Shown: one piece after another, positions 432 to 59,849 of the stretch
Layout: each line of letters starts with the position of its first letter
Position numbering within the stretch: the first letter of the stretch is position 1
Assembly: GCA_034780895.1 (NCBI GenBank)
Contig: JAUZTB010000081.1
Location: 11,132,050-11,196,049 of the forward strand
Reading direction: 5' to 3'
DNA: 64,000 nucleotides
Source: Rhynchobatus australiae
Lineage: Eukaryota
Notes under the pieces: generated by a model
What the model saw: the letters and a program-made list of their open reading frames with translations, nothing else
The model's database searches: none
What the model was told of the DNA's origin: nothing
Translations under genes and position numbers: made by a program

Positions 432-501
432 ATGAAAACGCCTGTGATCCTGCAGACGGAAGCTATTTACTATCCTATTCTTGGAGCCATTGGGATTCCA
501 G
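432..501 (+). CDS. GPR139/GPR142-like GPCR gene 1, coding exon 1 (joins 2979-3898)
   Basis: The ATG frame reads MKTPVILQTEAIYYPILGAIGIP plus G, then donor gtaaat at 502. It is 70 nt, phase 1, and homologous to exon 1 at 50141 and 55008. The ORF track misses it. Confidence 0.88.
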
Positions 502-1379
502 GTAAATCAGTCATAGAACGGTTTGGCAGATATAAGTTGAAGTGTTTGACTCCCGATGTGAACAGACAACGACAATGATATCTGAAAAAAAAGTGTTTTA
601 GGATCCCATCATAGTATTAACGCAAACACCTTACTGAAGTAAAATTAGTCTGACTGCTCGTCATCAGTAATGCACACGATTGTCAACAATGTGCTTGGGT
701 CATTTGTGTACTGGATTGAGCTATGAAAATGCTAGTGTTTGAATATATAGAATAAGGGTAGATAATAATTTGCACTTCAGTTATGTTCACCGAGCAGAAA
801 TAAACATCCCTTTCAGCTCCAAGAAAATAAAACAGTCTGCCACAGGAATGGTGGATTGCATGCTTCAAATAAAGGATTTTTGTGAAAATGTTGCATTTCA
901 TGCATTTCAGTTTAGATTCCATGGAGTAGTTTCGACCCAGCGTCACTGAACAGATAGAAAGTAAATGCAACCGTATATTCCGCACGTTGTTTCTCAACGT
1001 CAGTATTTATTGATAATTTCAAATTTGGAGGTCATGGCAGAAACTGAACAGCTGCAAAATCATATTGATGGATTTTCTTCAGTGCATTCTGTACTTCTGC
1101 AGGAGAATATGCTTGTCGTGCAGAACCTTCCGTAGAGAGTTGTATTCAATTTTATTCAAATCGAATGAAGAAAGTAATTGCCATAGACAGAGTTCCGTGA
1201 CGATTCACAGATTTGATTCCTCAGATGGCGGTTTGCAGGATGGGGAGACAGTAACGAGAGTGAGATCTAGTACAGAAATGGAAAGATAAGCAATGTTATC
1301 ACTGAAAGAAATAATTGGCGAATCAACCGATCAGATACAAAAAAATATTTCAATTACGTGAACAGGTTTAGGAAACTGG

Positions 1380-1620
1380 CCATCGAAAGAATGAGGTAGC
1401 TTATTTCAGATTTAGTCGCAGAAAAAAAATTCTTCGTCCAGAGTTTGGTGAACCTTTGAAATGCTCGATTTCAGAGCACAATCAAAGCTTAATCAACTCA
1501 TTTAAACGCTTGCTGACAGGTTTCAGCGCAAAATGAAGGAGTATGAGACACGAGGATAACGCGGAGAAAATGTCACTGAGATATCAGATTGCCAGGATTT
1601 TACTGAATGGAGGATATTTT
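1380..1620 (+). mobile_element. Degenerate CR1-like LINE 3' fragment in the intron of gene 1
   Basis: aaattcttcgtccagagtttggtgaacctttgaaatgctc resembles the CR1 ORF2 C-terminal FFSQRVVNLWNSLP region seen better at 41040-41110 and 63250-63306. Confidence 0.4.
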
Positions 1621-2978
1621 TGTCACCTACTGTTGTGCTCTGAAAGATTTTCTGCAAAATCTGTGTTCAGCTGTACCAAGAATGCACGCGTTCAACTGCG
1701 ATCGTTTTTTTTTTCCTCAGCAGTGGTTGTATTTAATCATGTAAAATGAGTTTGCAGCCAAGTCCTCTTGAACTCATTTTTTACCATGAACCTGAGACCA
1801 AACTTAGTGCTCATCACCTCAATATTTATTCAGTAGATGTGGAATTAGCCTATTTACCGATTTTACTATGGTTTTCATTTCAATGTTTTAATATTTTATT
1901 GAAACTTTTANNNNNNNNNNCTTCAAGCTAACGTGAGTGTTGTATACGGAAACACTGCCACGAGAGATGTAGTAAGAGTTATTCCAAAGAATAATTAATG
2001 ACCCAAATGAAATTGTAATTGGTTGTCGGAAACAGTAGAACATTCTCAGTTTAGAAAGTATTTCAAAATTTGTTAATTCAAGCTGCACTTCCCAAATATT
2101 TTATTTCAAAGCTTCACAAACACTACTGATAGAAATAAGTTTTTTTTTATAGTTCTGATAGGATTTCTTGTCAAATAACTCTACATCAACTGGTGAAATT
2201 GTGACATAGGAATTATACGTCGCATATACATATCCAGAAAAACAAACCCGGGACAAATATTGCGACGGTATTCAAGGAAGGTTACTCATGTAACCTTAAA
2301 TTTGCTCTGTGTGTTGAGTTGCTTCTGTTGAATGTTTGTCTGTGCGCAACCGAACCACACGGGAGATAGTTGAACAAATGTCTAATGCATTGTGTATGGA
2401 CCAGCTGAGTAACCATCAATTTGTGGACTCGAACTGAGGGTACTCACCAGCCATATTAGCCATCTCCAGATGTAAAAAGAACAATACGTTACAAATCCAC
2501 TCATTCCATTCGAACCTGCAGTGGAGATAACAGAAGAAGAGCAACATTTCCAATATGAAGTTTGGTTGAACAGCGGAACACAGATGCGATGAATATTTAT
2601 TGTTTTTAATTGAATTACAATGGCCCTGAGATAAAATGAATATAACTGTAAGCTTGGTTGATATGATGTTGGATAACGAACTGTAGGTAAAATGAAGCAC
2701 ACATTGGGACGATTAAATTAGAGCAACATATAGATCTGCCGAGATGCAAATACTTAATATTTTTCCACAGTATTTTATTTTATAAACCGTACTGCGTGCA
2801 GGCAACAAAAAAAATCGAACAAGTCAGGGATGGTTTCGCAACCATTGTTTTATATTTTTTAATTTACTTTAAATGCCCTGAAGGAATAAAAATGGGGATA
2901 AAATTTTGACCAAGGAACGCCCTGTTTTTTTTCCTATTAAACCTTGTTTCTAAAGAAATTTGTTTTCTTTGTTTGCAG

Positions 2979-3898
2979 CTAATTTGATGGCAATGGTCAT
3001 TCTGTCCTCTGGAAAATGCGGTCTCTCCAGATGCATCATCAAGTATCTAGTATCGATGGCAGTTGCTGACCTCATGGTTTTGCTAATTAATGTAATGGTG
3101 AATGAACTGAAAGAGTCGTATTTTCCGTATTCATTCTTGAATTACACGCCTATTTGCAGTCTTATTGTTCTATTGATGTATATTTCTCTTGACTCCTCTG
3201 TCTGGTTAACGGTCGCTTTCACACTTGATCGATTTGTTGCGATTTCTTGCCAGTCGTTGCGGGCAAAATATTGCACGCCGAAGATAGCATCGAGGGTTAT
3301 AGCAATGGTTTTCTTGTTAAGCATCTTGGAAAATATCCCAATTTACTTTATATTTGAACCTCGGGATATAATTAACCAGATACCATGGTCTTGTTACGTA
3401 AAAGAAAGCTTCTACACCTCACCTGCTTGGATCGTATTCTTATGGATCGAAACAGCCTTAACCCCTTTTGCACCATATGTGTTGATTCTTCTGCTTAATT
3501 CATTGACCATAAAGAATATAATATTGTCCAACAGAGTCAGGAGCAAATTACGAGGAAACAACAAAGAGGGTTGCCAGAATGATCAAGAGACTGACAACAG
3601 AAGGAAATCAATCATTTTGCTCATTGCAATATCTGGCAATTTTATTCTCTTATGGATGGTAAATCTCGTGTGCTTCATCTGTGTGCAGTTCACCGACACT
3701 CAGTTTTGGGACTCAGATGCTAACGATGCTTTCACCATTGCAGAGAAATGTGGGTACATGCTAAGGTGTTTGAGCACTTGTACAAACACCTTCATTTATG
3801 CGATATCTCAGAAAAAGTTCAGAGAGGAAATGAAGAATATGATTAAGCGTCTCATTTTTCCTACCGGTAATTTATGCAGGCACTGTATGTTTCTTTAG
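2979..3898 (+). CDS. GPR139/GPR142-like class A GPCR gene 1, exon 2; spliced product 329 aa, intact
   Basis: Acceptor tgttttctttgtttgcag at 2977-2978; G|CT rebuilds the TM1 motif GIPAN. Further motifs: MAVADL (TM2), C3.25, FTLDRFVAI (TM3), PWSC (ECL2), PFAP (TM5), RRKSIILL..W (TM6), NTFIY (TM7), helix 8 KKFREE. Total 70+920 = 990 nt. Confidence 0.92.
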
Positions 3899-5290: not shown

Positions 5291-5292
5291 AA

Positions 5293-5532: not shown

Positions 5533-5787
5533 CAATTATCCTTGGGAAACACCACTGGCAACAACAGTTACAATAACGCCGTTGCGCCACTACCTTCCGC
5601 CTTCTGTGGCCAATCTAATTTTGAATTCAATCCACTAAGTGATCAGGGATCCCGACTGTGTTAATCTTCTGTATATGCATAACATGANNNNNNNNNNNNN
5701 NNNNNNNNNNNNNNNNNNNNNNNNNNNNNNNNNNNNNNNNNNNNNNNNNNNNNNNNNNNNNNNNNNNNNNNNNNNNNNNNNNNNNNN

Positions 5788-6420
5788 GTTGCTCCACTAC
5801 CCTTCGCCTTCTGTGGCCAATCCAATTTTGAATTCAATCCACTAAGTGATCAGAGATCCCGTCTGCGTTAATCTTCTGTCTATTCATAACATGAAGGACA
5901 TTGCCGAAAGCTTTAGTAATGTCCACAATAACTATTTCCGTACACTAATCTGTCATCTTCGACGTCTCCATACAAAACTCAATAAAGTTTGGATGATTTG
6001 AACTGCCTCGCAGAGAATCATGCTGACTATAACTGTTCGGTCTATGCTTTTCAAGATGCCAGCAGATCATAATTCCCATCTGCTCTGCCAACCTTCCGAC
6101 CAGTCTACCAATGGGGTTAATTTTTAAAGTCTTACTCAAGTCGCCTTCAATTCTGCCTTAACCAATATTCCCAGATCGCTCCTCAAAATCCTCAACCAAA
6201 TTAATCACGAGATTTCCTTCACAGAAAACCATACTGTCTGTCCCTCATCAGCAGCTTCTTTTCCAAATGCTCCTAAGACCTGTGGCGCTGAATTTATTGC
6301 AGTGATTTTGCTTCTGATAATGTAAGGACCGCAGTTCTATCGTTACTTGACTGATCCCTGTTGCTATTCTTAAAGAAAGGACTCACTATCATTCGCTATC
6401 CTACAGACTTTGTGACCTCA
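5788..6420 (-). mobile_element. CR1-like LINE RT-region relic
   Basis: Minus peptide WHLEKHRPNSYSQHDSLRGSSNHPNFIEF parallels YWHLEKHRLLMDSLHGFVRGRSCLTRLID in the 35803 CR1 ORF. Confidence 0.7.
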
Positions 6421-9400
6421 GCAATGACCACCAAAAATGGAAAAATAACCATGAAGGCTTCATGTATCGCATCTATTGCTTCCCATGACACGCTGCAGGA
6501 GATCTCATTATCCACGATCAATCTTTTTGTTTTATCAAACATAATGCACTCATTAAAACAGCTCCACTTTCCTTACACTGATAGATTACATGCTACCTTG
6601 GTTTCCCTCACTGAAATCACCATTTTCCACGTCCATATCCTTGGTCAATTCAGATGAGAACGAACCCAGGCTCACATCCCGCGGCTAGAAACATACATTC
6701 CTCCTTTAATCCCGAAGAGTCCCCAAACTTACCCTCGTTACATTCTTACTCCAGATATACTTAAATAATGTCTGTATTTTCTCTTTATTCTTAGCTGCCA
6801 AATGTATTTCATGGCCTTTTTTGTCCTGCGTAATGTCCATTTTAACTTGTATCATTGTGTTATTCTTTATGAGATTCATTCAATTCCAATTGCTTACACC
6901 TGTTATATGCTTACTTCTTTTCCCCAATCACACGTTTGACATATATTCTTATTCCTGGTTTCCTAATCATACCAAGCTCCGCCTTGCATCATTATCGGAC
7001 ATTACTGAACGTAAGCTCCTCATACCACTCTTCTGAAAGGCCCCACTTTTCGCCGCAAGCATATGCTCTGAAACGTCTTTAGCCAGGTTGCCTCTTATTG
7101 TATTAAACTAAGCTTTCCGAAATCCTTGGACCAGAATTTGAGGACTAAACTTTACATTTGTTTAATTATGGACTCTATTCTCACAGTGCCCCCTACAGAT
7201 ACTTACACGATCACACAATCTACTCAGTTTTATTTCTTCAGATGAGGTCCAGCAATGCCCCGTCTCTACAGATTAGCTTTTGGACGCACTTTTGAAAGAA
7301 AGTCCCATCAATGCAGGCTCCACACACGAAGGCAATCCCTGTCAATATTGGGAAGTATAATGCCGACTGTCGTGACGCTGTTTTGACTCTATTTCCCATA
7401 CACTTTCCTGCTGGCCATTGGGGCCTAGNNNNNNNNNNNNNNNNNNNNNNNNNNNNNNNNNNNNNNNNNNNNNNNNNNNNNNNNNNNNNNNNNNNNNNNN
7501 NNNNNNNNNNNNNNNNNNNNNNNNNNNNNNNNNNNNNNNNNNNNNNNNNNNNNNNNNNNNNNNNNNNNNNNNNNNNNNNNNNNNNNNNNNNNNNNNNNNN
7601 NNNNNNNNNNNNNNNNNNNNNNNNNNNNNNNNNNNNNNNNNNNNNNNNNNNNNNNNNNNNNNNNNNNNNNNNNNNNNNNNNNNNNNNNNNNNNNNNNNNN
7701 NNNNNNNNNNNNNNNNNNNNNNNNNNNNNNNNNNNNNNNNNNNNNNNNNNNNNNNNNNNNNNNNNNNNNNNNNNNNNNNNNNNNNNNNNNNNNNNNNNNN
7801 NNNNNNNNNNNNNNNNNNNNNNNNNNNNNNNNNNNNNNNNNNNNNNNNNNNNNNNNNNNNNNNNNNNNNNNNNNNNNNNNNNNNNNNNNNNNNNNNNNNN
7901 NNNNNNNNNNNNNNNNNNNNNNNNNNNNNNNNNNNNNNNNNNNNNNNNNNNNNNNNNNNNNNNNNNNNNNNNNNNNNNNNNNNNNNNNNNNNNNNNNNNN
8001 NNNNNNNNNNNNNNNNNNNNNNNNNNNNNNNNNNNNNNNNNNNNNNNNNNNNNNNNNNNNNNNNNNNNNNNNNNNNNNNNNNNNNNNNNNNNNNNNNNNN
8101 NNNNNNNNNNNNNNNNNNNNNNNNNNNNNNNNNNNNNNNNNNNNNNNNNNATAGCACCAGCAAAATCATCGCCCTTCATTTATTCTTAATTTCTCCGTAT
8201 ATGGCTGCATTCGACGATTCCGCCAGAGTATATTCTCTAACTGAACCTCTGATTTCCATATAACGAGAGATTTCCTTCACACGAGGGTTCCCGAAACTAC
8301 GATTTTAGTCCATAGGGTTGGGGTACCACCATCATTCACTATAAGCTCTCAGCAGGCGGCGGTATATGTTTGTGAATGAGAAATTGTTTGGTGTCTTAAC
8401 GTTGAAGAATAAAAGGGCACATACCGTGTAGGGCACGTGGATGGGCATAGTGAAAATAAACCACTGAGCCAAAGGAAGCTATAAACATTCCAAGAGGCGG
8501 AGTACACAATGATATCACTGGCGCTGGAGGTATAAAACTGGAAGTAGCAAAAAAACAGTGTCAAGCAGAAAAAAAAAACTCAGCGACAAGTAATGTTGTT
8601 TTACAATGAAATCTAGTGTACATCTTTGAGACAGGGTACGGCAACCTTTCGGAAGGCAATGCGTCGAAAGACTCTGGAGGGCATGCAACCTGACAAGATG
8701 ATACCACTTACTCTCTGAGAGACAATAGTCTGACAGTTAATAGTGCAGGAGCAATCCAGGTGAAATCATGATGACGTGACAAATAACGGCTTCTAAAATG
8801 TTGCACCAAAGCGATATACACAAAGCGTTCCATTTTGCAACTTCGATTTTCCGAAGAGGGAACAGCACATATTGTTGAATGTAGGGTTAGGTGTTGCATG
8901 GCCTTATGAAAGCTTTTGTTTTGCTCTGGTCACCCTGAAGATAGATAAGATTGAAAAGCTGAGCATGTGATATGATAAATGCAAGTTGGAATTGTTGAGA
9001 ACAAAACATACATCGAAGAATTGCGGATGGAGTTCGGGATGTCTATTCATGCGTAACGCACAGCGACCAAACCATTGATGGTTTGCATTTCCCTAAAAGG
9101 GAAAGAGAAAATGTTGCTGCAGGATGGAAATTGACAATGTGAGGAATGTGAGGGAAAAAGGACAGCTTTCGCCCGCCCTAAATGTTGACTCTTTCCCACA
9201 GATGTTCCTTGACCTATTGATTTGCTCCGGCACTTTCTGCTGCTTTTTTGGGGTTTCCAGCATCAGGACTATAGTTTTCTTTTTCAGTTTTCCCTCTCCT
9301 ACCGGACTTAATGTAAGCTGTACATAGGTTAAGCAACTGCATTTTTCTTACAGTCAGGAAGGGGAATGACCAATTATAATTTAATTGCAACAACCACGTT

Positions 9401-10409
9401 TGAGAAATGTTCTGATTCAGTTATTCATAATCACGAAAGAAATGTGTCCAATTGACTTCACCGTGTATGATTCTGGGTCATCTTACCTTTCACCACGATT
9501 TTTTTTTCTCAATTGTTTCTGCCGATTACACTATTAAGTTGGACCGGGATTGGTTGCCGTAATGTTCAGTAAAGAAACGAAAAATATGGAAGAATGTTAC
9601 ATTGATTTATCGTGACATATTCTTTCCACTGTTCTGTGATACATGATGGATATTCCTTTAATAGCTTCTGTAATTTCCATCGTACCAGATTTTTATTTAA
9701 AAGAATGGAGTACAAGGCAGTGGCTTCATGGTTCATCATGGAAAATACCTGAATTTGCGGTTACACTGGTGTGAGATAAAACCATATCGTGCTGTATACA
9801 AAATAAATAAATATAAGTAAATTCAATCGAAACCGCTCATGCCCTTCCAGCAGACAATAATTATGAACTCAGTTCATCGTGCTGTAAAGTTGAAATAACT
9901 CAAGTGCGTGGAAAAGATGTCCAGGAGAAGTGTTATTCTAAAATTATGAGCACACTTTCGGAAAATCTGTTAAAATTAGCGTATTCGAAAATCGACATGA
10001 CTTTTTTTTTGCAAAGAAGCAAAGAATAAAATGTTAATACTTCCGATTGAACCTCCAAAATCGTACGAGCCATTCTTTGTTGTGCATGGTTTTTAAGATA
10101 AGTAAAGTTGCCGTGATCAAATATCTTCAGGGACTGCAAGTTATACACTAAAGTTGATACAAATGGAAGACGCTTCATGGCTTTCGTTTTCGCAGTGATA
10201 GTTAATGTTGATATAAAATGGAGTCAGCAGCAACTATCCAGAACCCTGATAGATATCTTTTGCAAATTATGCCGGCAGAGGATTTGTTCTTATCAATACA
10301 ACGTCGGACAACGAGTATCGTTGGTTTGCATATCATTGACCTCTGACCAATGCGAGAGCTTAAGATCGCTTCTATGCATCGACAAAAAAAGTCGAGGAAA
10401 ACACATAAA

Positions 10410-10900
10410 ATATGAAATTAGGAATAAAATCATGCCAGACAGCCCACCGAGACTGCTCCACCATTCAGGACGACTTTTGCTACATTGCGTTTGGTCTCAT
10501 ATCTTCGTACGTGCCTTGATTTTTCAAAAAAATCGACTTCCCCATTAAATATCCAGAATGATTTAGCCTACATATCTCTCCAGAGTAGAGGATTACAGAG
10601 GCTCCCTGTCCTCTACGAGAAGAAACGACGAAGCATGTCTGAATAATTTGACGGATCCTAATCTTGTAGCAAAGTTTCCCAGATCCAGATTCGTCCAAAT
10701 GTCGTAAATTATCGACAACGAACTTGCTCTTCCAACTGAAGTTCTCATGTTTCAAAAAGATAGCCTCATTCTTATGAACGCTAAAGAATACGGACCTATA
10801 TGTTTCTCCTTATGTGACAGGAGAATCCTCTCATCCCAGTACTTAGCCTGATCGCCTTATTTAGTCTGACAGCAGAAAACACAACTGTTGACAAATATGA
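10410..10900 (-). mobile_element. Degenerate CR1-like 3' end, duplicated at ~13980-14480
   Basis: gaaattaggaataaaatcatgccagacagcccaccgagactgctccaccattc resembles the minus-strand CR1 3' ends at 40865 and 63055. Confidence 0.5.
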
Positions 10901-11203
10901 ACTGCAGCACTGCGGACTTGTTGCTCTACAACATATCATATAGTAACTTCACAAGGATACGACCTATTCTAGACTCATGACACAATAAAAAGTTCGGCCA
11001 GACAGGGGAAAAATCCTCATGCTGTTTCAACACTTTAGATTTTTTTTAAGAAGTAATCACTCGCAGCAGTGAATGGTTTCGGGGTGCTGCGGTGGAGAGC
11101 TGCNNNNNNNNNNNNNNNNNNNNNNNNNNNNNNNNNNNNNNNNNNNNNNNNNNNNNNNNNNNNNNNNNNNNNNNNNNNNNNNNNNNNNNNNNNNNNNNNN
11201 NNN

Positions 11204-11404: not shown

Positions 11405-14400
11405 CTTCCTTGTTTTCCCCAATGAAACGTTTGATTTATTTTCATATTCTTGGTTTCCTAATCATACCAAGCTCTGTCTTTCATCCTTATCGGACATTAT
11501 TGGCCCTAACCTCTTAAACTCACTCTTCTGAATGTCCCAGTTATTGATGTCGTTTTCACCGCAGACAGATGCTTCGAAGGTACTTTAGCTAAGTTGCCTC
11601 TTATTGTATTGAATTCAGCTTTCCAAAATCCTTGGGCCAGAGTTTGAGGACTAAACTTGATAGTTGCCTAATTATTGTCACTTTTGTCATAGTGCCCCCT
11701 CCCCCCCCCCCACCGTTACTTACTCAATCTGTTCATTTTAATTTCCTCAGAAAAATTCGAATAGTCCCCTGTCTCTACATATTTGCTCTTGGACACACTT
11801 ATCAAATACAGCCCAATCAATGCAAACCCCACACGCCAAGAATATCCCTGTCAATAGTGGGAAAGTATAATCCCCGACTGCCATGAGGCTGTTTTAACTC
11901 AATTTCTCTTACACATTGCGTCTGATCATTGGGACGTGGACAATAACTCCAGCAAAATCACCGCCCTTATTCTTAATTTCTCCATATCTTGCTGTATTGG
12001 ACGATTCTGCCAGGGTATACTCTCTAACTGAAACTCTGATTTCCATACACAAAGAGAATTCGTTCACACGAGCTTCCCAAAACTACGATTTTAGTTCGGG
12101 ATTTAGAAATAGGTTTGGGGCACAGCCATCATTCACAATAAGCGTTCAGCGGGAGAAGGTGTATGTTTGTGAGTTGGAACTTGTTTGGCGTTTTAACGCA
12201 GAAGAATAAAAGGGAAGACGATGTAGTACACGTGGATGGGCATAGTAAAAATAAACCACTGATCCAAGGGAATCTAGAAATATTCCAAGGGGCGGAATTC
12301 ACTATTCAAGAGGTATAAACTGGAAACAGCAAAAACACAAGTGTCAATCTGAACAAAAATAGTTTGCGACAAGAAATGGCTAAAACTGTTGTTCCACAAT
12401 GAAATCCAGTGTACATCTTTGAGACAGGATTCTATAATCTTTCGGAAGGCAATGTGTCTGAAGGCTGTGAAGGGAATGCAACCTGACAAGATGATGCCAC
12501 TTACTCTCTGAGAGACAATCGCCTGATGGTGAATGGTGCAGTATTATTCCAGGTGAAAACATGATGGCATAACAAAGAACGTATTGTTGAATGTGGGGTG
12601 AGACTTGCATGCCCGAATGAAAGCTTTTTCTTTGCTTTGGTCACACCGAAGACAGATCGTAGTTAAATTCTGAGCAAGTGGTGTGACTGATGCAAGTAGC
12701 AATTGTTGACAGCAAAACTTACATCAAAGAATGGCGGATGGAGGTTGGGACGTCTGTTCATGTGTAACGCACAGATACCAAACCTTTGATGGTTTCACCA
12801 AACTGTTGCCATGTTTTGAGGGGGGTTTCAGCATCTGGACTATTATTTTCTTTCCACTGTCCCTCTGCCACCGGATTTAAGGTGAGCTGTGGTAAAGCAA
12901 CTGCATGCTTTTCTTTAAATCAGGAAGGGTAATTAGCCAATACTACAGTCATTTAATTGCAATAAACACGTCTGGAAAATGCTATGACGAAGTTATTCAT
13001 AATCACGAATGAAATGTATACAAATTGACTTCACCATCTGTGATTATGATTCTGGGTTATTTAATCTTTCACCACGATTTATTCTTAATTGCTTCTGTCG
13101 ATTTCACTGTTAATTTGGACCGAGTATGGTTGCCGTAATGTTTCGTGAAACAAACGAAACTCATGGAAGAATATTACATTGATTTACCGTGACATATACC
13201 TTTCATTGTTCTGTGATACATAATGGATATTCTTTGAAGCGCCTATGTACCTTCCATTGTACATTTTTTCTCTTAATTTAAACAGATGGAGTACAAGGAA
13301 GTGGCAGCTGTCATTGGCGTCATGCTTCATCATGAAAAATAACTGAATTTGTGGTTACACCGTATCGTGTTGTATACAAAATCACATGCCTGGTATATTC
13401 AATCGAAACCTCTCATGTCCTCTTGCTGACTATAATTATGAACTCAGTCCAGAGTTCTGAAACGGTCGAAATAACTTAAGTGTATGGAAGAGATGTCCAA
13501 GAGAAATGTTATGATAAAAAGATGAGCAAACTTTCGGAAGTCTGTAAATACGAGCGTATTCTAAAATCGACATGACTTTTATTTTAGCAAAGAAGAAAAT
13601 AATACAACGTGATTACTTCCGATTCAACCTCCAATATCCAACAAGCCATTCATTGCTGTGAAAGATTTATCAGCTGGTAAAGTTGCCGCGATAAAATATC
13701 TTGAGAGACTGCAAGTTTTATACTAAAGTTGATTCAAATGGAAGGTGCTTCAGGGCTTTAGTTCCACAGAGATAGTGAATGTTGTTATAAAAAGGAGTCA
13801 TCATCAACACTATCCAGAACCATGATAGATATTTTCCTACAAATGATGCCGGAGGGGGATTTCCTTTAATCAATAGAAGGTCGGACAACGAGTATCGTTG
13901 GTTTGCGTGTCGTCGTCCTTCAATCAATGAAGATCGCTTCAATGCATCGACAGAAGAATCCCGAGGAGAGAACATAAAATATGAAATTAGGAAGATAATA
14001 AAGCCAGACAGCCCATCGAGACTGCTCTACCATTCAGGATGACTTTTGCTGAATTGCGTTTGGTTTCATTTCATCGTATGTGCCTTGATTTTTCAAAAAA
14101 AAAACGAATTCCCCTTTAAATATCCAGAATGATTTAGCCTACACAACTCACCGGGGTAGAGAATTCCAGAGATTCACTCTCCTCGACAAGAAGAAACTGC
14201 GAAGCATATCTGAATTATTTGACGTATCCTCATCTTGTTACAAAGTTTCCTCGATCCAGATTCGTCAGGATGTGGAAAACTCTCAACAGCAAACTTGCTC
14301 CCTCACCTCAAGTTCTCATGTTTCAAAAAGATAACCCCTCATTCTTAAAATGCCAAAGAATACAGACCTGATATCTTTTACCTCAAATAATAAGAGAATA

Positions 14401-15099
14401 TTCTTATCCCAGGACTTAGACTGATCGTTTCCATTTAGCCTGGCAGCAGGAAAAAAACTGTTGACAAATATATACTGCTGCACAACTGACGCTGCTCTGT
14501 AAAATATCATATGATACACCTGGAAATGACTTATTGCAGACTTATGACACAATAAAAAGTTCCGCCAGACAGGGACAATATCCTTATGTCATTTCAACAC
14601 TTTAGATTTCTTTTAAAAGCAATCACTCGCACCTGTAAATGGTGGTGGGGGCTGCCATAGAGGGCTGTGCATGTACCATATTTACCGGTTCCNNNNNNNN
14701 NNCTTTACTTGCATTATATTTCCATAAATCTTCCACTGTTAAGAGCTCAATCAAACTTCATTTGTTGTTTGATTACCACAATCACGGCAAAACAAATGGA
14801 CAATTCTTCTGCAACTATATTGCATTCTCCTTCATTGGACAGGCTTTTACATCTCACAAGTAGATTAAAACAACATTTTAACGTGTTAAATTATGCACAT
14901 GCATGGGGATGCGGATTAGTAGTTTGCGGAACTGTCCAGAGGATCGCTATTTCAGGAACAATAGCTGCACATACTTAAAGATACTCACCATTCTGACTTG
15001 GGCCACATTTATTAAGATATCTAAATGGAGAAGTATGCCTTGCAGAAAAGAAAATACACACATAAAAGGAAGTAAATAAATTGCAGCATCATCGATCAA

Positions 15100-15276
15100 A
15101 CGATTCAATAACTCCAATGATCGTGCAGTGTTCATGTCAACTTAGGGACTTCTCTCAGATATAAACGGGAATTAATTTGAAAGCAAGAGATCTATGCATT
15201 TGTCGAACTAACCCGAAGCATAACTGCTCTCTGATTATGGGACAGCCAGTGGTTCTACAGATCGAAAGTATTTACT
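15100..15276 (+). pseudogene. Promoter plus 3'-truncated exon-1 relic of a GPR139-like gene (ATG 15237, MGQPVVLQIESIY)
   Basis: cgattcaataactccaat, then GATATAAA at 15158, then gattATG 79 nt later. Thirteen codons match exon 1 at 50141 and 55008, then homology breaks (TTT AGA TAA) with no splice donor. Confidence 0.8.
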
Positions 15277-15551
15277 TTAGATAAAATTAAGACGGCAGGG
15301 ACTGACAGACAAACTGCATTTCCCACTTTGGCCACCATACTACTGGAAAACTCAATAATCCGCTCTATACAACGACATCACATTTTATTTCTCACAGGTA
15401 GAATCATACCAAACGTTCAAATTTCAGCAGGTAAACGTGAAAGAGGGTTCATGTAAGTCTTTTGTGTCATTGCCGAGGGGAGCATTCACCAAGAAGCAAA
15501 GTTCCATGCATTTGATATAACATAGTAAGTGACTGTTCCCCATGAAATACC

Positions 15552-15656
15552 NNNNNNNNNNNNNNNNNNNNNNNNNNNNNNNNNNNNNNNNNNNNNNNNN
15601 NNNNNNNNNNNNNNNNNNNNNNNNNNNNNNNNNNNNNNNNNNNNNNNNNNNCCCTG
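15552..15656 (+). CDS. GPCR gene 2 exon 1 (inferred; mostly inside the N-gap, only cCCT-G|gtaagt visible)
   Basis: 15280-15551 matches the upstream regions of genes 5 and 6 (49620-49890, 54530-54800). After the gap, ccctg|gtaagtc..cggaatagatgtattt matches cccg|gtaagtc..cggaatatatgtattt at 55074. Confidence 0.7.
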
Positions 15657-16099
15657 GTAAGTCCTTACCCAAAAGACGGAATAGATGTATTTTTGTATGT
15701 TTTGTATGTTTTGATTTTAATTTCAAGACGTCATTAACTGGAATAAAATGGTAATGAAATGTTTTTTAAGTGTTTTTATCAACTTGTTCAAGTAAATATT
15801 GTGTTGGCTACTGACTGTCAGCAATCAAGTTCAGAAGCCATTCTCAATTGATGCCAGTTATATTACAATGTGGAGAGAGTATGTACCTCAGAAAATGCTT
15901 CAATAGCGTGCTGGAAACCACTCAGAACGTTCTATTTGATACCTCCCTTTAAATACATTTCCATTCAGTAGAGAGCAAGGGGCATATTCCGTGGTCAAAA
16001 GATTGAATCGACCTAAACTGTTAAAGTCATAATAAGTATACTGATTGTATTCTCTTTCGACTGTACCCAAAAATTCAGCTGAAATATTTGGCAGTACCA

Positions 16100-19000
16100 T
16101 TCACAGGCAAAGAGAGATAATGGCCACTGCGCAATCCAATGGTATCCTGGTTCCGACATCCGCCGTTAGATGCAAGACAGCGACAGGCAGCAGATAAACA
16201 ATTTACAATATTAGGCGTCCTGTTCTAAGGGTACAAACAAGTATGTTTGGGACGACAATTAGTTCGTCTTTCCTCACCTGTTTCGAGCAGAAGAAATGAA
16301 ACACCAATACAAATGCAATTAATGGAATTTCGCAATGAACTTCTTACGGTACTGACATTCAACTGTGCAATCATATCCCTACCCTACATTTTGGGAGCTT
16401 GGTCAACAAAATGTGCTTTTAAAATTGGTTCCGCAATTGGAAAGGTTTGGGCGTCATGCGTACAAATGCTGTTGCCAGACTATGCAACCAGTTCGCGTGA
16501 CTACTCAAAATATCTTTGCCAGTACAATATTACACACTTACCTTCGAACACAACGGGCAAATACATCGGAAGATTAGTAGTAGTAAAACTATTTGTGAGG
16601 ATAGGCAATGGACTCTCAGATAGCACTGCGTCTTCTTAACATTCATGGAATGGTATCCACTTCTACGTTGGATGAAGGTGAAGAAAGAAAGTCATTGTTT
16701 ATGTTAGTGCGATAATCACAGTCTCTGCATCTATTTTCTGGCTCTAAGTTCAGGGAAGTGGCGATCATGTCTCTGTCCATTAATTTGTCTCAAACGTAAA
16801 TTTTCATTTGTGAATATCAGGGATATAAAGGGCTCCTTATTTACATACGGAACTAATCACAGCCTACAATAACGTCCATACCTTTCTTCCATTTCTGAAG
16901 ACCACAGAGTCAATGTATTCAACTCTTTTGGGAATATCTTTGTGATAACTAGTTTCAAAGGAAATTCAATTATAATTATTAATTCGAAACATTATAATAT
17001 TGATATAGAGTCATGCATCGGGGAAACAAACCCCTTGGCCTAACAAGGTTGATGCACCTGGCATTAACCATCTATATACACAAATACTGCATTTCAACCA
17101 GTTCTATTCATCAGTACCCCCGCCCCCTTCCGAATGTAACACTAAACAGCATACTTGGGACGGAATCACCACTAAGCTGCACACGAGGGGAAATTTATAG
17201 TGGCAATTAACCTACCAGCCATACATAAGAAACTGGAGCACCCAGAGGAAACTCACGCGGTCACACGAAGAACGTGCAAACTCCTGGAAGGCAGCAGCAC
17301 AAGTCGAGATTGAACTCGGATCTCTGGCGCAGTGAAGCAACCTGGCTATCAGCTGCACCACTGCTCTCAAGTATTCTCACTATTTTCGTTCTGCTATTAT
17401 TTCACATATATTTAAGTCTGTGGCATCCATCTCTACAACAAAAAAAAAATTGCTAAAGTGCAAATACAGAAAATGTTCTGTGCCATTATTGTTGGGATGG
17501 CTAGATTTTAGACGGAAAAGGAATTAACCGAAATAAGCAAGTAGAGGGTAAAAGAGTGAGATATAATTTCATTGAAAGGCACATAAAGATTGATGGCATA
17601 AGTGCGGAGCGTATGCTTTCTGCAGACTCTGAATTCAGCCAGTGTCACTGTAACAAAAATGGTAGTTTTCAATTGTGGATAGAGAGGTAAACAAATNNNN
17701 NNNNNNNNNNNNNNNNNNNNNNNNNNNNNNNNNNNNNNNNNNNNNNNNNNNNNNNNNNNNNNNNNNNNNNNNNNNNNNNNNNNNNNNNNNNNNNNNACCA
17801 TGCACAAGCAAAGTGAGCGAATGGCCACTGCGCAATCCAATAGTTTCCTGGTTCCGACATCCGCCGTTAGAAGCAAGACAGTGGCAGGCAGTAGATAAAC
17901 AATTTACAATATTAGGCGTCCTGTTGTGAGGGTACAAACAAGTTTGTTCGAGACGACAATTAGTTCGTCTTTCCTCACCTGTTTCGAGCAGAAGAAACGA
18001 AACACCAATGCAAATGCAATTAATGGAATTTCGCAATGAAATTCTTACGGTACTGACATTCAACTGTGTATTCAGATCCCCACCCTACATTTTGGGAGCT
18101 TAGTCAGCAAAATGTGCTTTTAAAATTTGTTCCGCAATTGGAAAGGTTTGGGCATCATGCGTACAAATGCTGTTGCCAGATTATGCAACCAGTTCGCGTG
18201 ACTATTCAAAATATCTTTGTCAGTCCAATATTATACACCTTCGAACACAACGGGCACATACATCGAGAGATTAGTAGCAGTAAAGCTATCCGTGAGGATA
18301 TGCAATGGACTCTCAGAGAGCACTGCGTCTTCATAATATTCATGTAATGGCATCCACTGCTACGTTGGGTGAAGGTGAAAAAAGGAAGTCATTGTTTATG
18401 TTAGTGCGATAATCAAAGTCTCTGCATCTATTTTCTGGCTCTAAGTTCAGGGAAGTGGTGATCATGTCTCTGCCCATTAATTTTTCTCAAACATAAATTT
18501 TCATTTGTGATTATTAGGGATAAAAAGGGCTCCTTATTTACATATGGAACTAATCACAGCCTTCAATAACGTCCATACCTTTCTTCCACCTTCTGAAGAC
18601 CACAGTCAATGTATTCAACTTTTTTGAGAATATATTTGTGATAACTAGTTTCAAAGGAAATTCAATTATAATTATTAATTCGAAACATTATAATATAGAT
18701 ATTGAGTCATGCATCGGGGAAAGAAACCCTTTGGCCTAACAAGGTTGATGCACCTCGCATCAACCACCTATATACACAAATGCTGCATTTCAACTAGTTC
18801 TATTCATCAACACCCCCACCCCCTGCCGAATCTAACACTAACCAGCTTACTTGGGACGGAATCACCTCTAAGCTGCACACGAGGGGAAATTTACAGTGGC
18901 AATTAACCTACCAGCCGTACATAGGAAACTGGAGCACCCGAACGAAACTGATGCGGTCAGATGAAGAACATGCAAACTCCTCGCAGACAGCAGCACAAGT

Positions 19001-31150: not shown

Positions 31151-31157
31151 ATCATCT

Positions 31158-37245: not shown

Positions 37246-37448
37246 TTTAAGTTCATTGCATAGCATTGAAGACTAAAAGAGGCATACAGGCAGAAGAAAA
37301 AAAACACATGTTACCAAACAAGACCATCCCGCTGCTGGTCTAACTGGAGGAAGATGTACTGCTAATTAGGTTTCCTTTTTCTGCAGGCAATTGGGTGACA
37401 ATATCCAATCTGAACTCAGGAAATAATATTTTCCTTCTTCTTTTCCAG

Positions 37449-41918: not shown

Positions 41919-41920
<2 letters not shown>

Positions 41921-41966
<46 letters not shown>
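41921..41966. repeat. (GT)23 microsatellite
   Basis: Perfect dinucleotide run. Confidence 0.97.
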
Positions 41967-41968
<2 letters not shown>

Positions 41969-50140: not shown

Positions 50141-50210
50141 ATGGGGCAGCCAATAATCTTACAGATAGAAAGCATCTACTATCCTATTCTTGCAATAATT
50201 GGCGTTCCCG
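50141..50210 (+). CDS. GPCR gene 5 exon 1 (MGQPIILQIESIYYPILAIIGVP-G|gtaagt)
   Basis: 70 nt with a canonical donor at 50211. Confidence 0.85.
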
Positions 50211-53807: not shown

Positions 53808-54387
53808 CTAACCTGGTGGCAATTGTCATTCTCTGCAGTGGAAACTGTGGTCTTTCCAAATGCATCACTCGATATCTCGTGGCGATGGCAGCAGGTGATC
53901 ACATGGTCCTGATATTTGACGTTATCCTGTATGAAATCAAGAATGCACATTTCACAAATCATTCCTGAATTATACTCCCATTTGCAGTCTCAATCTGACC
54001 CTTCTATTTGTTTCTCTTGATTGCTCTGTGTGGTTAACTGTTGCCTTCACATTTGATCGATATATTTCTATTTGCTATCAACGATTCCGAATCAGATATT
54101 GCACTGAAAAATCTGCAACTATTGTGATAACAGTAGTATGCTCATTGAGCGTGTTGGAAAATGTGCGCACTTACTTCATATATGAACCACGAGAAATAAT
54201 TGACCATGTGCCATGGTTCTGTTCCATAAAGCCAAGTTGTTTTAGCTCTCCTGTATGGATTGCAATTCTTTGGTTGGATACAATCTTAAACTCATTTGCA
54301 CCTTTTGTTTTGATCCTGCTGCTTAATTCCCTAACCATAAGATATATTTTCATTGCCAACAGAGTGAGAAAGGGACTTCGACAACAG
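53808..54387 (+). pseudogene. GPCR gene 5 exon 2: 1-nt deletion near 53959 (stop TGA 53966); 3' part interrupted by a gap
   Basis: acaaatcattcctga versus acaaattcattcctaa in gene 6. The downstream frame (54028 ORF) is intact up to the gap. This is either a young pseudogene or an assembly error. Confidence 0.75.
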
Positions 54388-55007
54388 NNNNNNNNNNNNN
54401 NNNNNNNNNNNNNNNNNNNNNNNNNNNNNNNNNNNNNNNNNNNNNNNNNNNNNNNNNNNNNNNNNNNNNNNNNNNNNNNNNNNNNNNTGCTTAGATTTAA
54501 AACAGATGTTCTTCATTTCTGTCTTACATCCACATAAGACTGCACAGAATGACAGTCAAAATGCATTTCCCACTTTAGCCACCATACTGCTGACAAACTC
54601 AATGAACCGCCCTGTACAACTACATCATATTTTATTTCTCACGGATAGAATCACACCAAGTATTGAGATTTCAGCAAGTAAATATGAAAGATGGTTCACG
54701 TCAGTCTTTTGTGTCACAGCCGAGGAGAACATTCACCAAGAAGGAAACGTCCATGCATTTGCTAGAACATAGATAGTGAATGTTCCCCATGAAATACCCA
54801 GCGTTCTTACACGTGCTCCGTTGAATGAGGAATCTAACTGTGGATATAAAAACAAACCGTGCTTTTTGTTTGTTCAAATGATTGATTGAGGCCAATTTTC
54901 ATGAGGGACTAAATCCTCCTTGGGATTTCTCGCAGATATAAGTAAGACTTAATTTGAAAACAATATTTAGAACTCTGGTAGACTCACCAGAAGCATAGCT
55001 TGTGATT

Positions 55008-55077
55008 ATGGGACAACCAGTAATGTTGCAGATAGAAAGCATTTACTATCCTACCCTAGCAATAATTGGTGTACCCG
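55008..55077 (+). CDS. GPCR gene 6 exon 1 (MGQPVMLQIESIYYPTLAIIGVP-G|gtaagt)
   Basis: 70 nt with a canonical donor at 55078. The ORF track misses it. Confidence 0.85.
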
Positions 55078-57566
55078 GTAAGTCAATTTTTGAACCGCGG
55101 AATATATGTATTTGCATTTGTTTGCTTCATAGACCTTAATGTCGATCAGTAAAATGTCTGGGCAGTTTTAACATTTTACCAAGTTGCTCATAATTACACC
55201 CTATGTACTATATTGTATCAACAGTAACATTCAGATCACTTTGCCTTAATTCCCAATGTTGTTACTGAGCCATTTCGGAATTAAATAGGCATCTACCACA
55301 AAAACATGGTGCAGTTCTCTGGAATCCATTCACAAAGGGCAATTTGCTACTTCATATTAGATTTATTTCCACCCATCAGAAAGAAAGAAGCTATCTCCGT
55401 ACTCGTAAAACCAATCTACATTGACTGTTGGAATCATAGATTGTGGTCCACCTTCATTCTCGTTGGTTGTACACGCAATCTTCAGACGAAATTCTTGGCA
55501 GCCCGTGAAGAGACAGACACAGTGATTTTTTTGGCCAACCGTTCTCCAATGATGACTTGCTTCAAGGATCGCCCTCAGCAAAGAGACCACAGCGTGCAGC
55601 ATATTTACAATTTACAATACATGCTGGTTTTCCGGGATGGTGCACTTGCCATATGAAGAATGAGATGGAGGAGGCAAAAATTGGTCCGAAGATTTGGAGA
55701 TGATGTCAATGAAATACGTAGAAACCTGAAAGAGCTCGGCAAGATCAATGCAGAAGTTTTCCTGGCTCTGTAGTTTAGCCGGGATCACAGTTTCAAAATA
55801 AGTGTTGACAATTAATGATAGAGAGAAAAATAAACGTCTTAATCGCTAAGCCAGTTAATCCATGATCGTTTTATTACACTGAGTGCAGTTTAAGAAAGAC
55901 TGGCAAAGGCCATGCGCGCTTGAAGGAAAGTATAAAAGAAAGCATGATGGATTTTAATAGACGACGAAATCCAAGGGTCCGATCGTCTACTGCTTCTTGA
56001 ACTTCTTGCGTTCCTGATTTTAAAATAACATTATTGAGATAATGGAATAAAAATGTTCACGACTTTCCAGAAGATTATGAGCAGGAGCAGGAATGGAGAA
56101 TCAGCTCCATTACCGGAGGCTGAATTTTCAGTTATCAGCCGCTCAGTTTCGATGGGTTGCCGAATTTACGACCTGTGCAGGGGATTTAGATGTGAAAGTC
56201 TGTAAAGGAAAAAAAAACAACAAAGTGACTAAATTGGGAAATGGTATACCACTTGAGGTGCAGGCTGTTGCAAATATATTCAGGCGATTGACTTGGCATC
56301 GTATTAGACCGAATCACGCTGAGTAACTGAGGGAAACCTGGAGGCCTTCCCTTCTCTGAGCCAATAGCAATAATTCAACATAGAACAACCAGGTGATAAG
56401 CATTTGCTTATAATTGAGAACCATTCAGATTCTCCATCAGAAGCTTGATTGAGCACAATAATACTCCATCCCTGGAATCAATGCTACTTTTAGCNNNNNN
56501 NNNNCCAAGGTGACTCGGCATAGCGTAAACTTGCACAATTGCAAAATTTCTGACTCCAGCTCGCGTGTTGTTGATTCCAGGAGTACAGTACTGACATGAT
56601 CAGGAGACTAATGATGTGCATTTCTGACTCTCCACCCACACCAGATAAATGCAGGAGAGCGCTTACGACCGGATTGCTTATATATTCCTATTTTCTGTGA
56701 ATAATTTCATTCAATTATTGCGCTTATTGTTGAAAATTTCTCACTTGATCCGTTATTTTCTTACTATTGCATGAATTTTGTTGTTGCCTTTTATCTGTAT
56801 AGTTATTATTTCAAAGGCTTTCGACAGTCAGAAAGGTGCCAAATGCTGTCGAAATTTCCATCCTTCGGGCCATGAAACTGATTCTTCCCCACTAATATGT
56901 TCCCAAGGAGCAGAGATTCCGAATCCATTGCTCACCAGTAGAAAAAGAAATAGACAATGCGGTTGAGTACGTGATTGGCGACTCTGGGCAGGAGGGTCTG
57001 TTCAAATTATCCCAGCCCATTACAATGTTTTTTGATCAATTGAAATGCCGAGAAGGAATCTGGAAAATATTCATCTTTTTATACGAGACAAAATAGATTA
57101 AATATCGAATTATGTATATCATACACCATGAAAATTCTTCCCTGGAAGGTCGTAAGTGTATTTTAAATTGGATCTTGGCATAGAGCTTCAGTATGTTCTG
57201 TACAGCCATGAACACAATCAGAGCCCAATAAAGGCGACAACATGAAAGGCAGCCGGAACAATCCTGCAGTTGTTTGTGCAGGAGTTTAGACAATCAACTA
57301 CCAATTTTGTATATTTCCATTCATCTGCTTCTTATGAAGTGAATAGAAACTATAATCTCGATAACAGTTTACATTTCATGCATGAGGAGCGCATGCTTTT
57401 CCAGTTGGTCGCATATACCAGTTTAATTCCAAATCTTCTGATGCATGTGAAAAGATGGAAAGACAGCTTTATGCAACAAAACATCCTTCATATTTGCAGC
57501 AATGAGTTTTTGGTTAATCGTTTTGTAACAGTTGGAAATGTAATACAATGTCCTGCTATTTTACAG

Positions 57567-58581
57567 CTAACCTGGTGGCAATTGTCATTCTCTGTCGTGG
57601 AAAATGTGGTCTCTCCAAATGCATCACTCGTTATCTTGTGGCGATGGCAGCTGGTGATCTCATGGTCCTGGTAGTTGATGTGATCCTATATGAAATCAAG
57701 AATGTGCATTTCACAAATTCATTCCTAAATTATACCCCCATTTGCAGTCTAAATCTGACCCTTCTTTTTGTTTCTCTTGATTGCTCTGTGTGGTTAACTG
57801 TTGCCTTCACATTTGATCGATTTGTTTCAATTTGCTGTCAACGATTCAGAATTAGATATTGCACTGTGAAAACTGCATCTATTGTGATAACAGTGATATG
57901 CTCATTGAGCGTTTTGGAAAATGTGCGCACTTCATATATGAACCACAAGAAATTATTGACCATATGCCATGGTTCTGTTCTATAAAGCCAGGTTGCTATA
58001 CCTCACCTGTATGGATTACAATTCTTTGGTTGGATACAATCTTAAACCCATTTGCACCTTTTGTTTTGATCCTGCTGCTTAATTCCCTGACCATAAGATA
58101 TATTTTCATTGCCAACAGAGTGAGAAAGGGACTTCGACAGCAGAATAATATAAGGGGGAGTGGAACCGACCCGGAGATTGAGAATCGAAGAAAGTCTGTA
58201 ATTTTATTACTCGCAATAACCGGTAGTTTTATACTCTTGTGGATCGTAATTTCCATATGTTTTCTGTCTATGTCGTTCATTGGCGAACAAACATTAGCAA
58301 CAAATTATAACAATCCATTCACTATTGCTGAAAAATCTGGTTATATGCTGAGGAGTTTAAGTGCTTGTACAAATACTTTTATTTATGCCGTGTCCCAAAT
58401 CAAATTCAGGGAAGAATTGAAGAATTTGGTAAGGTATCCTCTAACTCTCCTAAGTAAATTCCTTAAAGAAATTCAACAGCTTCACAGAATGGAAGTTAAG
58501 TATAGTCCTGAACAGCAAATGTTGTTTGGTTTTCCATCTGACCAGTTTTCAATGGTATTTCCAAGTACTTGGGCGATTTGA
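57567..58581 (+). pseudogene. GPCR gene 6 exon 2: 4-nt deletion (ACTTACTT>ACTT) at ~57929, otherwise intact
   Basis: gtgcgcacttcata versus gtgcgcacttacttcata in gene 5. ORFs 57548-57985 and 57859-58581 together cover the whole receptor. Confidence 0.8.
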
Positions 58582-59267
58582 GCAGACCTTGTATCGTGTG
58601 TCATAGGAACAACATAAAAATGTAACAATATTATTTCTTGTGAGGACCCCTGAAATTAATGATCTCCGACGTTCGGTTCAAGCACTTGACTTAATGTCAA
58701 ACGAATTAAGATCGAAACAAAAGCAGAGCATTTATAATCCTCTTCCTTCACGGATAAATATTGCCACATGCCGAAAATACATTTTTTTTCCAATCCAACA
58801 ATTCTGTTTAAACCCCCGTACTCCATTGGCATTTGATACACTGTATATGTAGGTACAATCTGTTTTCAAGCATGTCATCATTAAATTACAATGTTGCGAT
58901 TTCAGCACAGAATGCCGAAGAGTCCAGACATTCCAATCAACGACATATTCGATAAACATCGGTACAAAAGTCAAAATCAAAGTCAAGTTATTAATCATTT
59001 GCCCAAGTACATGTATGTACAGGTTTCATGAAAACTTTCAACAACATCACTGGTACATAGCACCAGATACGGAGCACTCAGAAGGAAACAACATGAATTA
59101 AACATGAATCATACTTCTTTTTTCCAAGAAAGAACAATATTAGAACAAAGAAAAAAAGTCAATTGTAGTGCAGAGTGTTCAAAGTTGTCAGAGTGTTGCT
59201 GTACTGAGATGATTACTGAGGTTGTGCAGGTGGGTTCACGAACCGAACAGCTGAAGGAAAGTAGTTG

Positions 59268-59350
59268 TGTCACAATGTTGATCAAGAGCAAACTCACAGA
59301 GAACCCAAATGCGGAACACCGATACAAGACTGGAGTCAGGATACTTCCTC
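59268..59350 (-). mobile_element. Solo LTR family copy 3, 3' end; its other end is at 63407-63479
   Basis: Reverse complement of the end of 38501-38909; 63407-63479 is the reverse complement of its start. Flanks agttg/agttc. Confidence 0.8.
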
Positions 59351-59450
59351 NNNNNNNNNNNNNNNNNNNNNNNNNNNNNNNNNNNNNNNNNNNNNNNNNN
59401 NNNNNNNNNNNNNNNNNNNNNNNNNNNNNNNNNNNNNNNNNNNNNNNNNN

Positions 59451-59849
59451 GTTTTGATCCTGCTGCTTAATTCCCTGACCATAAGATATATTTTCATTGC
59501 CAACAGAGTGAGAAAGGGACTTCGACAACAGAATAATATAAGGGGGGAAACCGATCCCGAGATTGAGAATCGAAGAAAGTCTGTAATTTTATTGCTCGCA
59601 ATAACCGGTAGTTTTATAGTCTTGTGGATGGTAATTTTCGTATGTTTTCTATCTGTGCCGTTTACAGGCGAATATACATTAGGAACAAATTATAACAATC
59701 CTTTCACTATAGCTGAAAAATCTGGTTATATCCTGAGGAGCTTGAGTGCTTGTACAAATACTTTTATTTATGCCGTGTCCCAGGTTAAATTCAGGGAAGA
59801 ATTGAAGAATATGGTAAGGTATCCTATAATTCTGTACAGTATTTTTTAA
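59451..59849 (+). CDS. 3' fragment (TM5 to C-terminus) of a GPR139-like exon 2; probably the missing end of gene 5, or a seventh copy
   Basis: Open frame VLILLLNSLTIRYIF...NTFIYAVSQVKFREE...YSIF*. Its first 81 nt overlap the contig end 54307-54387 with one mismatch. Confidence 0.75.
   Translation, partial: VLILLLNSLTIRYIFIANRVRKGLRQQNNIRGETDPEIENRRKSVILLLAITGSFIVLWMVIFVCFLSVPFTGEYTLGTNYNNPFTIAEKSGYILRSLSACTNTFIYAVSQVKFREELKNMVRYPIILYSIF

Follow-up and report, generated by a model that had tools for sequence, protein, structure and literature searches.

A tandem array of divergent orphan G protein-coupled receptors of class A in Rhynchobatus australiae, part of a family apparently expanded in elasmobranchs and a candidate chemoreceptor repertoire

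Cartilaginous fishes have large olfactory organs, and surveys of their olfaction counted six known receptor families only. Here we analyse 64 kb of AT-rich DNA from Rhynchobatus australiae (contig JAUZTB010000081.1; the whole stretch, which has 17 N-gaps, is called the window) holding a tandem array of G protein-coupled receptor (GPCR) genes. A first-pass annotation, made from the letters alone, had likened the array to mammalian GPR139 and GPR142 and proposed an uncharacterised family of chemoreceptors. The small classical olfactory repertoire to which it pointed agrees with the literature, quoted throughout from the parts of each source available to us: the repertoire of cartilaginous fishes is the smallest known (mean 43.8 genes, range 20-62; PMC10869828), and that of elasmobranchs is small and V2R-dominated, known families only being considered (PMC10116579, PMC11979771, PMC10869828). 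A paucity of GPCRs in cartilaginous fishes has also been reported (PMC8455134).

Among the closest described systems, GPR139 is related to the MIP, proctolin and FMRFamide receptors (PMC12208981), and its pocket residues are F3x33, H5x43, W6x48, R6x51 and N7x38 (PMC5430874). GPR139 and GPR142 are single-copy, whereas the family described here is multi-copy and clustered. Two non-mammalian orphan families related to GPR139, 'Orphan 139-like' and 'NMOGPR', have been listed with members unclear and ligands unknown (PMC5207463, Table 1); the available part of that table does not mention an expansion. Like the present family, the OR, TAAR, V1R/ORA and T2R families lie in tandem clusters that turn over by birth and death, and they have compact genes, a short N-terminus and a pocket that varies between members. 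They differ in that the window proteins match 7tm_1 only and that the present family has no Asp 3.32, carries a coding intron inside transmembrane helix (TM) 1 and appears to have a separate origin in the peptide-receptor branch.

Gene 1 is the model for the array. Its exon 1 (432-501; 23 codons plus one base, covering the start of TM1, with a GT donor at 502) fits the N-termini of homologues, and its exon 2 (2979-3898) matched 7tm_1 (E 5e-20). Splicing the two (GT-AG, phase 1) gives an open frame of 329 aa encoding an intact class A GPCR. The model is backed by a Hemitrygon akajei protein of the same length with an identical N-terminus (P0001, 84% identity), the closest match to gene 1 among those listed, which also points to an elasmobranch, and probably a ray, as the source of the DNA. 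A search of the window with the spliced gene 1 product (tblastn) revealed seven exon-2 pieces and four exon-1 matches, every one on the + strand, and a DNA profile added a fifth, decayed promoter and exon 1 at 28417-28727 (E 4e-7). The window holds six co-oriented class A GPCR units in a tandem array. The units number six and not seven because two of the exon-2 pieces (53808-54387 and 59451-59849) share an 81-bp overlap that has a single mismatch, and each adjoins a 100-N gap. The contig between them (54488-59350) carries a full paralogous unit, gene 6, which is 13-16% divergent outside the coding sequence. Most likely the two pieces are one gene (gene 5/7), with gene 6 scaffolded between its halves.

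Exon-2 DNA identity was 59-92% in 20 of the 21 pairs, the last pair being the overlap of gene 5/7, and the lowest synonymous divergence (dS) among distinct genes was 0.21 (gene 5/7 vs. gene 6). The first-pass annotation had allowed that the copies might be assembly duplicates of one or two loci. With these identities and a dS of at least 0.21 this, like a chance resemblance, is ruled out for the six units; it is accepted for the split of gene 5/7 and likely for several of the repeats that flank gaps. The ratio of non-synonymous to synonymous divergence (dN/dS) was 0.17-0.41 in 20 of 21 pairs, the remaining pair having no amino-acid change. Together with the dS of 0.21, this indicates that the units are paralogues under purifying selection and that the single lesions of gene 5/7 and gene 6 are recent or are errors. 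At least six two-exon units and an exon-1 relic had been claimed. Six co-oriented units are indeed present, but both exons are visible in only three of them (genes 1, 5/7 and 6), and the relic is a partial promoter copy. The mixture of intact genes, single-lesion copies and an old pseudogene stood as to the lesioned copies (genes 5/7 and 6) and the pseudogene (gene 3), while provable intactness shrank to gene 1; gene 2 is probably whole and intact.

The proteins of the window are class A (rhodopsin-like) GPCRs. Genes 1, 2 and 4, the three tested, all matched 7tm_1 above the cut-off, and no other Pfam family was found for the window proteins at E<=0.01. Across 100 family sequences N1.50, D2.50, C3.25, D/E-R3.50, P5.50, W6.48 and N7.49/Y7.53 are kept in 91-100%, and P6.50 and P7.50 are replaced (by V and T). 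A homologue search put forward 1323 candidates, of which 558 passed at E<=1e-10. In the best 120 of these 558, the 110 rows with an organism name are all from elasmobranchs (sharks, skates and rays; 18 species), and most of these 110 are labelled 'probable G-protein coupled receptor 139'. The same 120 include at least 27 copies from Heptranchias, 21 from Heterodontus, 16 from Pristiophorus and 15 from Rhinoraja, all of which are lower bounds. Because 20 of 21 Heterodontus, 14 of 15 Rhinoraja and 16 of 27 Heptranchias rows lie on one contig apiece, these species appear to have clusters like the one described here. A search with a 70-sequence profile (E<=1e-30) matched 138 proteins, each standing for a cluster at 50% identity.

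In a 216-row tree, from which rows under 250 profile positions and most hits of the second search were left out, species-specific blooms were evident. Genes 2, 3, 5/7 and 6 formed a window-specific clade (support 100), gene 1 grouped with the Hemitrygon protein and gene 4 stood near a Narcine protein. Some subfamilies are common to sharks and rays, and genes 1 and 4 have orthologues in other rays. The tandem birth-and-death process proposed at first pass is thus borne out by divergent co-oriented paralogues, broken copies and species-specific clades. A second tree (IQ-TREE, 61 rows; like the first it did not include GPR139 and GPR142) placed the expanded family (33 rows, support 95/92) as sister (100/99) to a receptor, P0210, that has a single row for each amphibian species and one for a sturgeon. 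Beside the family stood the P0220 clade, again with one row per species (coelacanth, sharks, ray-finned fishes, amphibians and reptiles), a third clade (P0251/P0264) which includes a lamprey row, and amphioxus proteins. The family, the amphioxus proteins and the non-mammalian vertebrate GPR139-like receptors formed a clade (100/99) vs. seven invertebrate outgroup rows. Pairing the family with the P0220 clade as its sister stays compatible with the data (approximately unbiased test, p 0.062). 'Single-copy' here means one row per species among 90%-identity clusters in the matches listed, not a genome count, and 'elasmobranch only' is true of rows with a named source (19 of the 33 family rows), among which no chimaera was seen. 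By sequence, then, the array belongs to a family of orphan class A GPCRs that expanded in elasmobranchs, within a chordate 'GPR139-like' lineage whose likely counterpart in bony vertebrates seems to be single-copy in amphibians and sturgeon. The P0210, P0220 and P0251/P0264 clades fit the description of 'Orphan 139-like' and 'NMOGPR' (PMC5207463), a presumed match of names, the table holding no sequences in its available part.

Membership in the known chemoreceptor families was not indicated. No Pfam olfactory receptor match was found (E<=0.01), and the genes have a coding intron in TM1. Position 3.32 is L, I, N, V or M, not the Asp of the TAARs, and aminergic receptors score far below GPR139. 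V1R/ORA and T2R gave no Pfam match with the window proteins (E<=0.01) or with P0001 (E<=1). On present comparisons, the family is a member of no known chemoreceptor family. The claim of an uncharacterised lineage-expanded family has held, given the 558 matches and the species-specific clades, and no description of this expansion was found in the literature searched, a search outside which most subscription journals lay. In the available parts of the whale shark supplements (PMC8455134) only the orthogroup label GPR142 was found, the readable files of the little skate supplements gave 0 matches, and term searches of the available text found no GPR139 passage in PMC11886862, PMC5818035, PMC13113109 or a manta preprint and nothing relevant in PMC12294341. 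The expansion is already in the databases, hidden beneath a misleading automatic name, and apparently undescribed as a family. Its annotation is poor, since only 62 of the 120 best database models (of 558) carry the exon-1 junction motif; many take an internal Met as their start or run across the intron.

Several observations concern the homologues themselves. In the database model P0160 a family member is joined to sequence resembling a voltage-gated sodium channel (recognised by eye); this is probably an annotation fusion that reveals a neighbouring gene. The P0220 group (P0220, P0269-P0386) is a conserved GPCR with roughly one row for each species, ranging from sharks to reptiles; neither mammals nor birds occur in the best 120 of 145 rows. 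Two of its rows are annotated as TMEM183A isoforms, suggesting that the P0220-type gene adjoins TMEM183A. The amphioxus relatives P0246, P0254, P0408, P0412, P0416 and P0418 have neighbouring locus numbers, a hint of a small independent tandem array.

GPR139 was the best solved-structure match by sequence (E 8e-10 with a single sequence, 8.5e-18 with the profile) and the first Foldseek hit. The family shares with GPR139/GPR142 the motif YY..L...G.PAN at the start of TM1, the absence of the NPxxY proline, an aromatic 3x33 and W6x48. However, human GPR139 scored 67.6 bits against the family profile, less than invertebrate peptide-type receptors (108-119) and amphioxus proteins (125-143); as a score ranking only, it also fell below three vertebrate single-copy clades. 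Two of the five GPR139 pocket residues are kept in the 100 family sequences (3x33 F/Y 86%, W6x48 98%) and three differ (5x43 E/D 88%, 6x51 variable, 7x38 Y 90%). In addition, GPR139 aligns no cysteine where the family keeps C3.25 and the cysteine of the second extracellular loop (ECL2). Orthology with GPR139/GPR142 is ruled against by the profile ranking and the three changed residues, and the database name 'GPR139' is a nearest-hit label, because GPR139 is outscored by amphioxus and invertebrate receptors and its pocket differs. The closeness to GPR139/GPR142 is not supported as a guide to ligands: GPR139 is only the nearest solved structure, and H5x43, R6x51 and N7x38 are replaced. The nearest non-chordate profile matches are protostome receptors of FMRFamide/MIP (sex-peptide) type (108-119 bits), assigned by the cluster names of the atlas and by look. 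They served as the outgroup in the trees, and no vertebrate peptide ligand is known. The neighbours in the atlas include clusters with the Pfam serpentine-chemoreceptor families Srw/Srx on a minority of members, a lead only. The amphioxus relative P0254 matches nematode Srx above the cut-off and Srw weakly; Srw is presumably derived from FMRFamide/MIP-type receptors.

The upstream regions share a compact promoter, as had been noticed at first pass. GATATAA, a TATA-like box, lies at -73 to -81 in all five upstream regions, and TGATTGA (-129 to -136) and CCAAT (-116 to -123) are each present in four of five. Motif order is identical and spacing near-fixed in gene 1 (296-357; TGATTGA -136, CCAAT -123, GATATAA -81), gene 5 (exon 1 at 50141-50210; -132, -119, -76) and gene 6 (exon 1 at 55008-55077; -129, -116, -73). 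The gene 1 upstream region aligned with the other four with scores of 37-73, compared to a maximum of 30 among 2000 random window stretches, and the promoter is kept between copies with dS above 1. A TAATT[AG] site is present in two of the five promoters.

The structural model of the Hemitrygon orthologue P0001 (mean confidence, pLDDT, 84.8) shows seven helices and helix 8, with helix 1 starting at residue 5. Of 100 family sequences examined, the motif was found in 65, and in 56 of these Y1.39 falls at residue 14. As there is almost no N-terminal domain, the ligand would have to bind the helical pocket. The intracellular motifs (D2.50, DRF, N5.58, R6.30, W6.48, NTxxY and helix 8) are nearly invariant. 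Pocket positions were more variable than all other TM positions in the family (entropy ratio 1.34-1.58). The ratio of pocket to outer-TM entropy was 1.02 in the family, compared to 0.62 and 0.36 in two single-copy clades, and this difference was significant in all six permutation comparisons (p 0.003-0.02). These values indicate that the ancestral constraint on the pocket has been released in the expansion, a pattern to be expected if a repertoire serves varied ligands. Acids are conserved at 3.37 (D 95%), 5.43 (E/D 88%) and 7.35 (E 90%), and position 6.51 is R or K in all rows of two single-copy clades. The conserved acids and the loss of the basic 6.51 suggest a cationic group on the ligand.

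From its sequence, the family would behave like a sensory or an immune repertoire. Our best guess, in which we place not quite even confidence, is that it is a putative and overlooked repertoire of external chemoreceptors. As the window displays, two-exon genes with a common core promoter are copied in tandem, diverge while under purifying selection and frequently decay; as the alignments display, the signalling face is kept while pocket positions fixed in the single-copy relatives vary among paralogues. Each paralogue may have ligands of its own, small external molecules or short peptides that bind in a TM3-5-6-7 pocket. A basic group of the ligand would probably be held by D3.37, E/D5.43 and E7.35, and specificity would come from variable sites such as 3.32, 6.51 and 7.43. 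All paralogues may signal via a common G protein. The least sure step is that expression would be sparse, in chemosensory cells of the nose, taste buds or solitary chemosensory cells. A bolder version, which we regard as doubtful, is that the genes form a fifth olfactory-type receptor family of jawed vertebrates, which sharks and rays derived from an orphan peptide-type GPCR, which rivals or exceeds their known OR, TAAR, V1R and V2R genes together and of which each cell in the nose, or each chemosensory cell in skin and gill, expresses a single member. If true, it would overturn the view that some 44 receptors are all that cartilaginous fishes smell with. Being clustered, quick to turn over and represented by at least 15-27 close members in each of four species, the family is an obvious candidate for missed chemoreceptors. 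Should it prove not to be sensory, it would still be a large receptor expansion that is apparently undescribed, and its Xenopus counterpart, which looks single-copy, offers a laboratory route to the ancestral ligand.

Several points weigh against a chemosensory repertoire. The short N-terminus taken at first pass as a sensory hallmark is present in the family, but the single-copy relatives share it (14-17 residues), so it is no sign of a sensory shift. Compared to 53 outer-half TM positions, the 35 pocket positions (set, like the generic numbering, by offsets and not from coordinates) gave a ratio of only 1.01-1.21 (p 0.2-0.9). The hypervariability seen against all TM positions is thus lost. 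The pocket seems unconstrained rather than hypervariable, and any receptor family with differing ligands would be expected to show the same. A dN/dS above 1 was found in no pair by pairwise counting, the outer half included (0.27-0.35). Intactness can be proved for one of six units, gene 1. No O/E-type site was matched in any of the five promoters. V2Rs already label many olfactory neurons (PMC10116579), and the available part of a catshark study lists no GPCR among the 50 most abundant and specific genes of its brain and olfactory epithelium library (PMC11979771), a list that leaves sparse genes untouched.

An immune or barrier repertoire is the best surviving alternative, although we consider it unlikely. 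On this reading, leukocytes or epithelia would use the receptors to sense microbial or damage-derived peptides and metabolites, in the manner of the mammalian formyl-peptide or Mas-related clusters. Clustering, turnover and pocket release are generally known in immune receptor families and fit them equally well, and the duplicates that flank gaps, 5.6-8.4% apart, would, if allelic, be consistent with divergent haplotypes of old age. On the other hand, there is no signal of positive selection, the scores of chemokine, C3a and leukotriene receptors are far lower than that of GPR139, and so short an N-terminus would not allow the docking there that is generally known from chemokine receptors. Cartilaginous fishes are described as being without MAS1-related receptors (PMC8455134), which would leave room for a substitute.

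Improbable, in our view, is a set of internal sensors: receptors of the gut, gill, kidney, rectal gland or reproductive tract for nutrients, osmolytes (urea, methylamines) or endogenous peptides, diversified to suit elasmobranch physiology. GPR139 and protostome MIP/FMRFamide-type receptors are relatives of the lineage (PMC12208981), and catshark genes of the OR and V2R families often show expression in the gut, the rectal gland or the testis (PMC11979771). However, dozens of copies and frequent loss would be unusual for hormone or nutrient receptors, and the hormone-like single-copy relatives keep a fixed pocket, which the family does not.

Largely neutral amplification of an unstable, repeat-rich region, inflated by assembly duplicates and leaving most copies redundant or dead, is largely refuted and very improbable. 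Three of the six units are broken, one is without exon 1, and several of the 17 gaps are flanked by near-duplicate sequence, but dN/dS of about 0.2-0.4, the constraint on the promoter, the subfamilies common to sharks and rays, the orthologues of genes 1 and 4 in other rays and the recurrence of the cluster in chromosome-scale assemblies of other species all speak against it. That the genes are true GPR139/GPR142 co-orthologues sensing tryptophan and phenylalanine can hardly be credited, since the database name, the best structural match in sequence and fold and the retained aromatic 3x33 and W6x48 are set against the bit scores, the substitutions at 5x43, 6x51 and 7x38 and the C3.25/ECL2 cysteines absent from the aligned GPR139.

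The remaining units are in various states of preservation. Upstream of gene 2, the relic of the first-pass annotation (14981-15280, ATG at 15237) comprises a partial promoter copy and the first 14 exon-1 codons. It continues directly into sequence that in genes 5 and 6 sits upstream of the promoter, and it is a partial tandem copy (or mis-assembly) of gene 2's own promoter. In the upstream segment of gene 2 itself (15281-15661) a 100-N gap (15552-15651) hides the promoter and most of exon 1, of which the last codon with the donor (CCTG followed by GTAAG, 15653-15661) is visible just past the gap. Exon 2 of gene 2 (21408-22321) is an open frame of 303 codons. The decayed promoter and exon 1 found by the DNA profile (28417-28735; ATG at 28660 followed immediately by TGA, donor lost) probably belong to gene 3. 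Its exon 2 (33660-34570) is an old pseudogene with 7-bp and 2-bp deletions, an in-frame stop and no D2.50, C3.25, R3.50 or W6.48. Exon 2 of gene 5 (53808-54387, the 5' part up to the gap) has a 1-bp deletion near 53959; the 3' part after the gap (59451-59849), identical at 80 of the 81 overlapping positions, is most likely the rest of it. Gene 6 exon 2 (57567-58581) has a 4-bp deletion at 57929, and its downstream frame passes the usual stop and runs to 58581.

Exon 2 of gene 4 (37449-38353) is an open frame of 300 codons. Its exon 1 was not found in the gap-free 29422-37448 by protein profile, DNA profile, shuffled local alignments or donor scan. A second acceptor-like site with degenerate first exon-2 codons lies about 62 bp upstream of the gene 4 acceptor (37370-37470). 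Decayed reverse-transcriptase remnants like those of long interspersed elements (LINEs) occupy 35489-37247 and 31158-32050 as an inverted pair with 70% identity. They had no Pfam match, and by their motifs we take them to be CR1-like. The remnant that ends about 200 bp before the gene 4 acceptor may mark the loss of exon 1.

No flanking genes were recognised in the window, Rfam gave 0 matches, ten other open frames had no Pfam match above the cut-off, and a tandem repeat scan returned two trivial rows. Repeats with 5.6-8.4% substitution and few indels lie across 100-N gaps at 5581-5894, 16096-19395, 19371-20387, 22362-23259, 23526-24790 and 26866-29189. Either haplotypes of unusual divergence were left uncollapsed here, or the repeats are tandem copies of very recent origin. 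Comparison of 26866-27213 with 27314-29189 showed that one copy is without about 1.5 kb carrying the decayed exon 1 (28660), possibly a deletion polymorphism that removes a dead promoter. A non-coding tandem duplicate of about 4 kb (6910-11102 vs. 11405-14667) is 16-20% divergent, and no receptor exon was found inside it. A 500-bp repeat (60693-61184 vs. 63485-64000) has 78% identity, and a (GT)23 microsatellite is present at 41921-41967.

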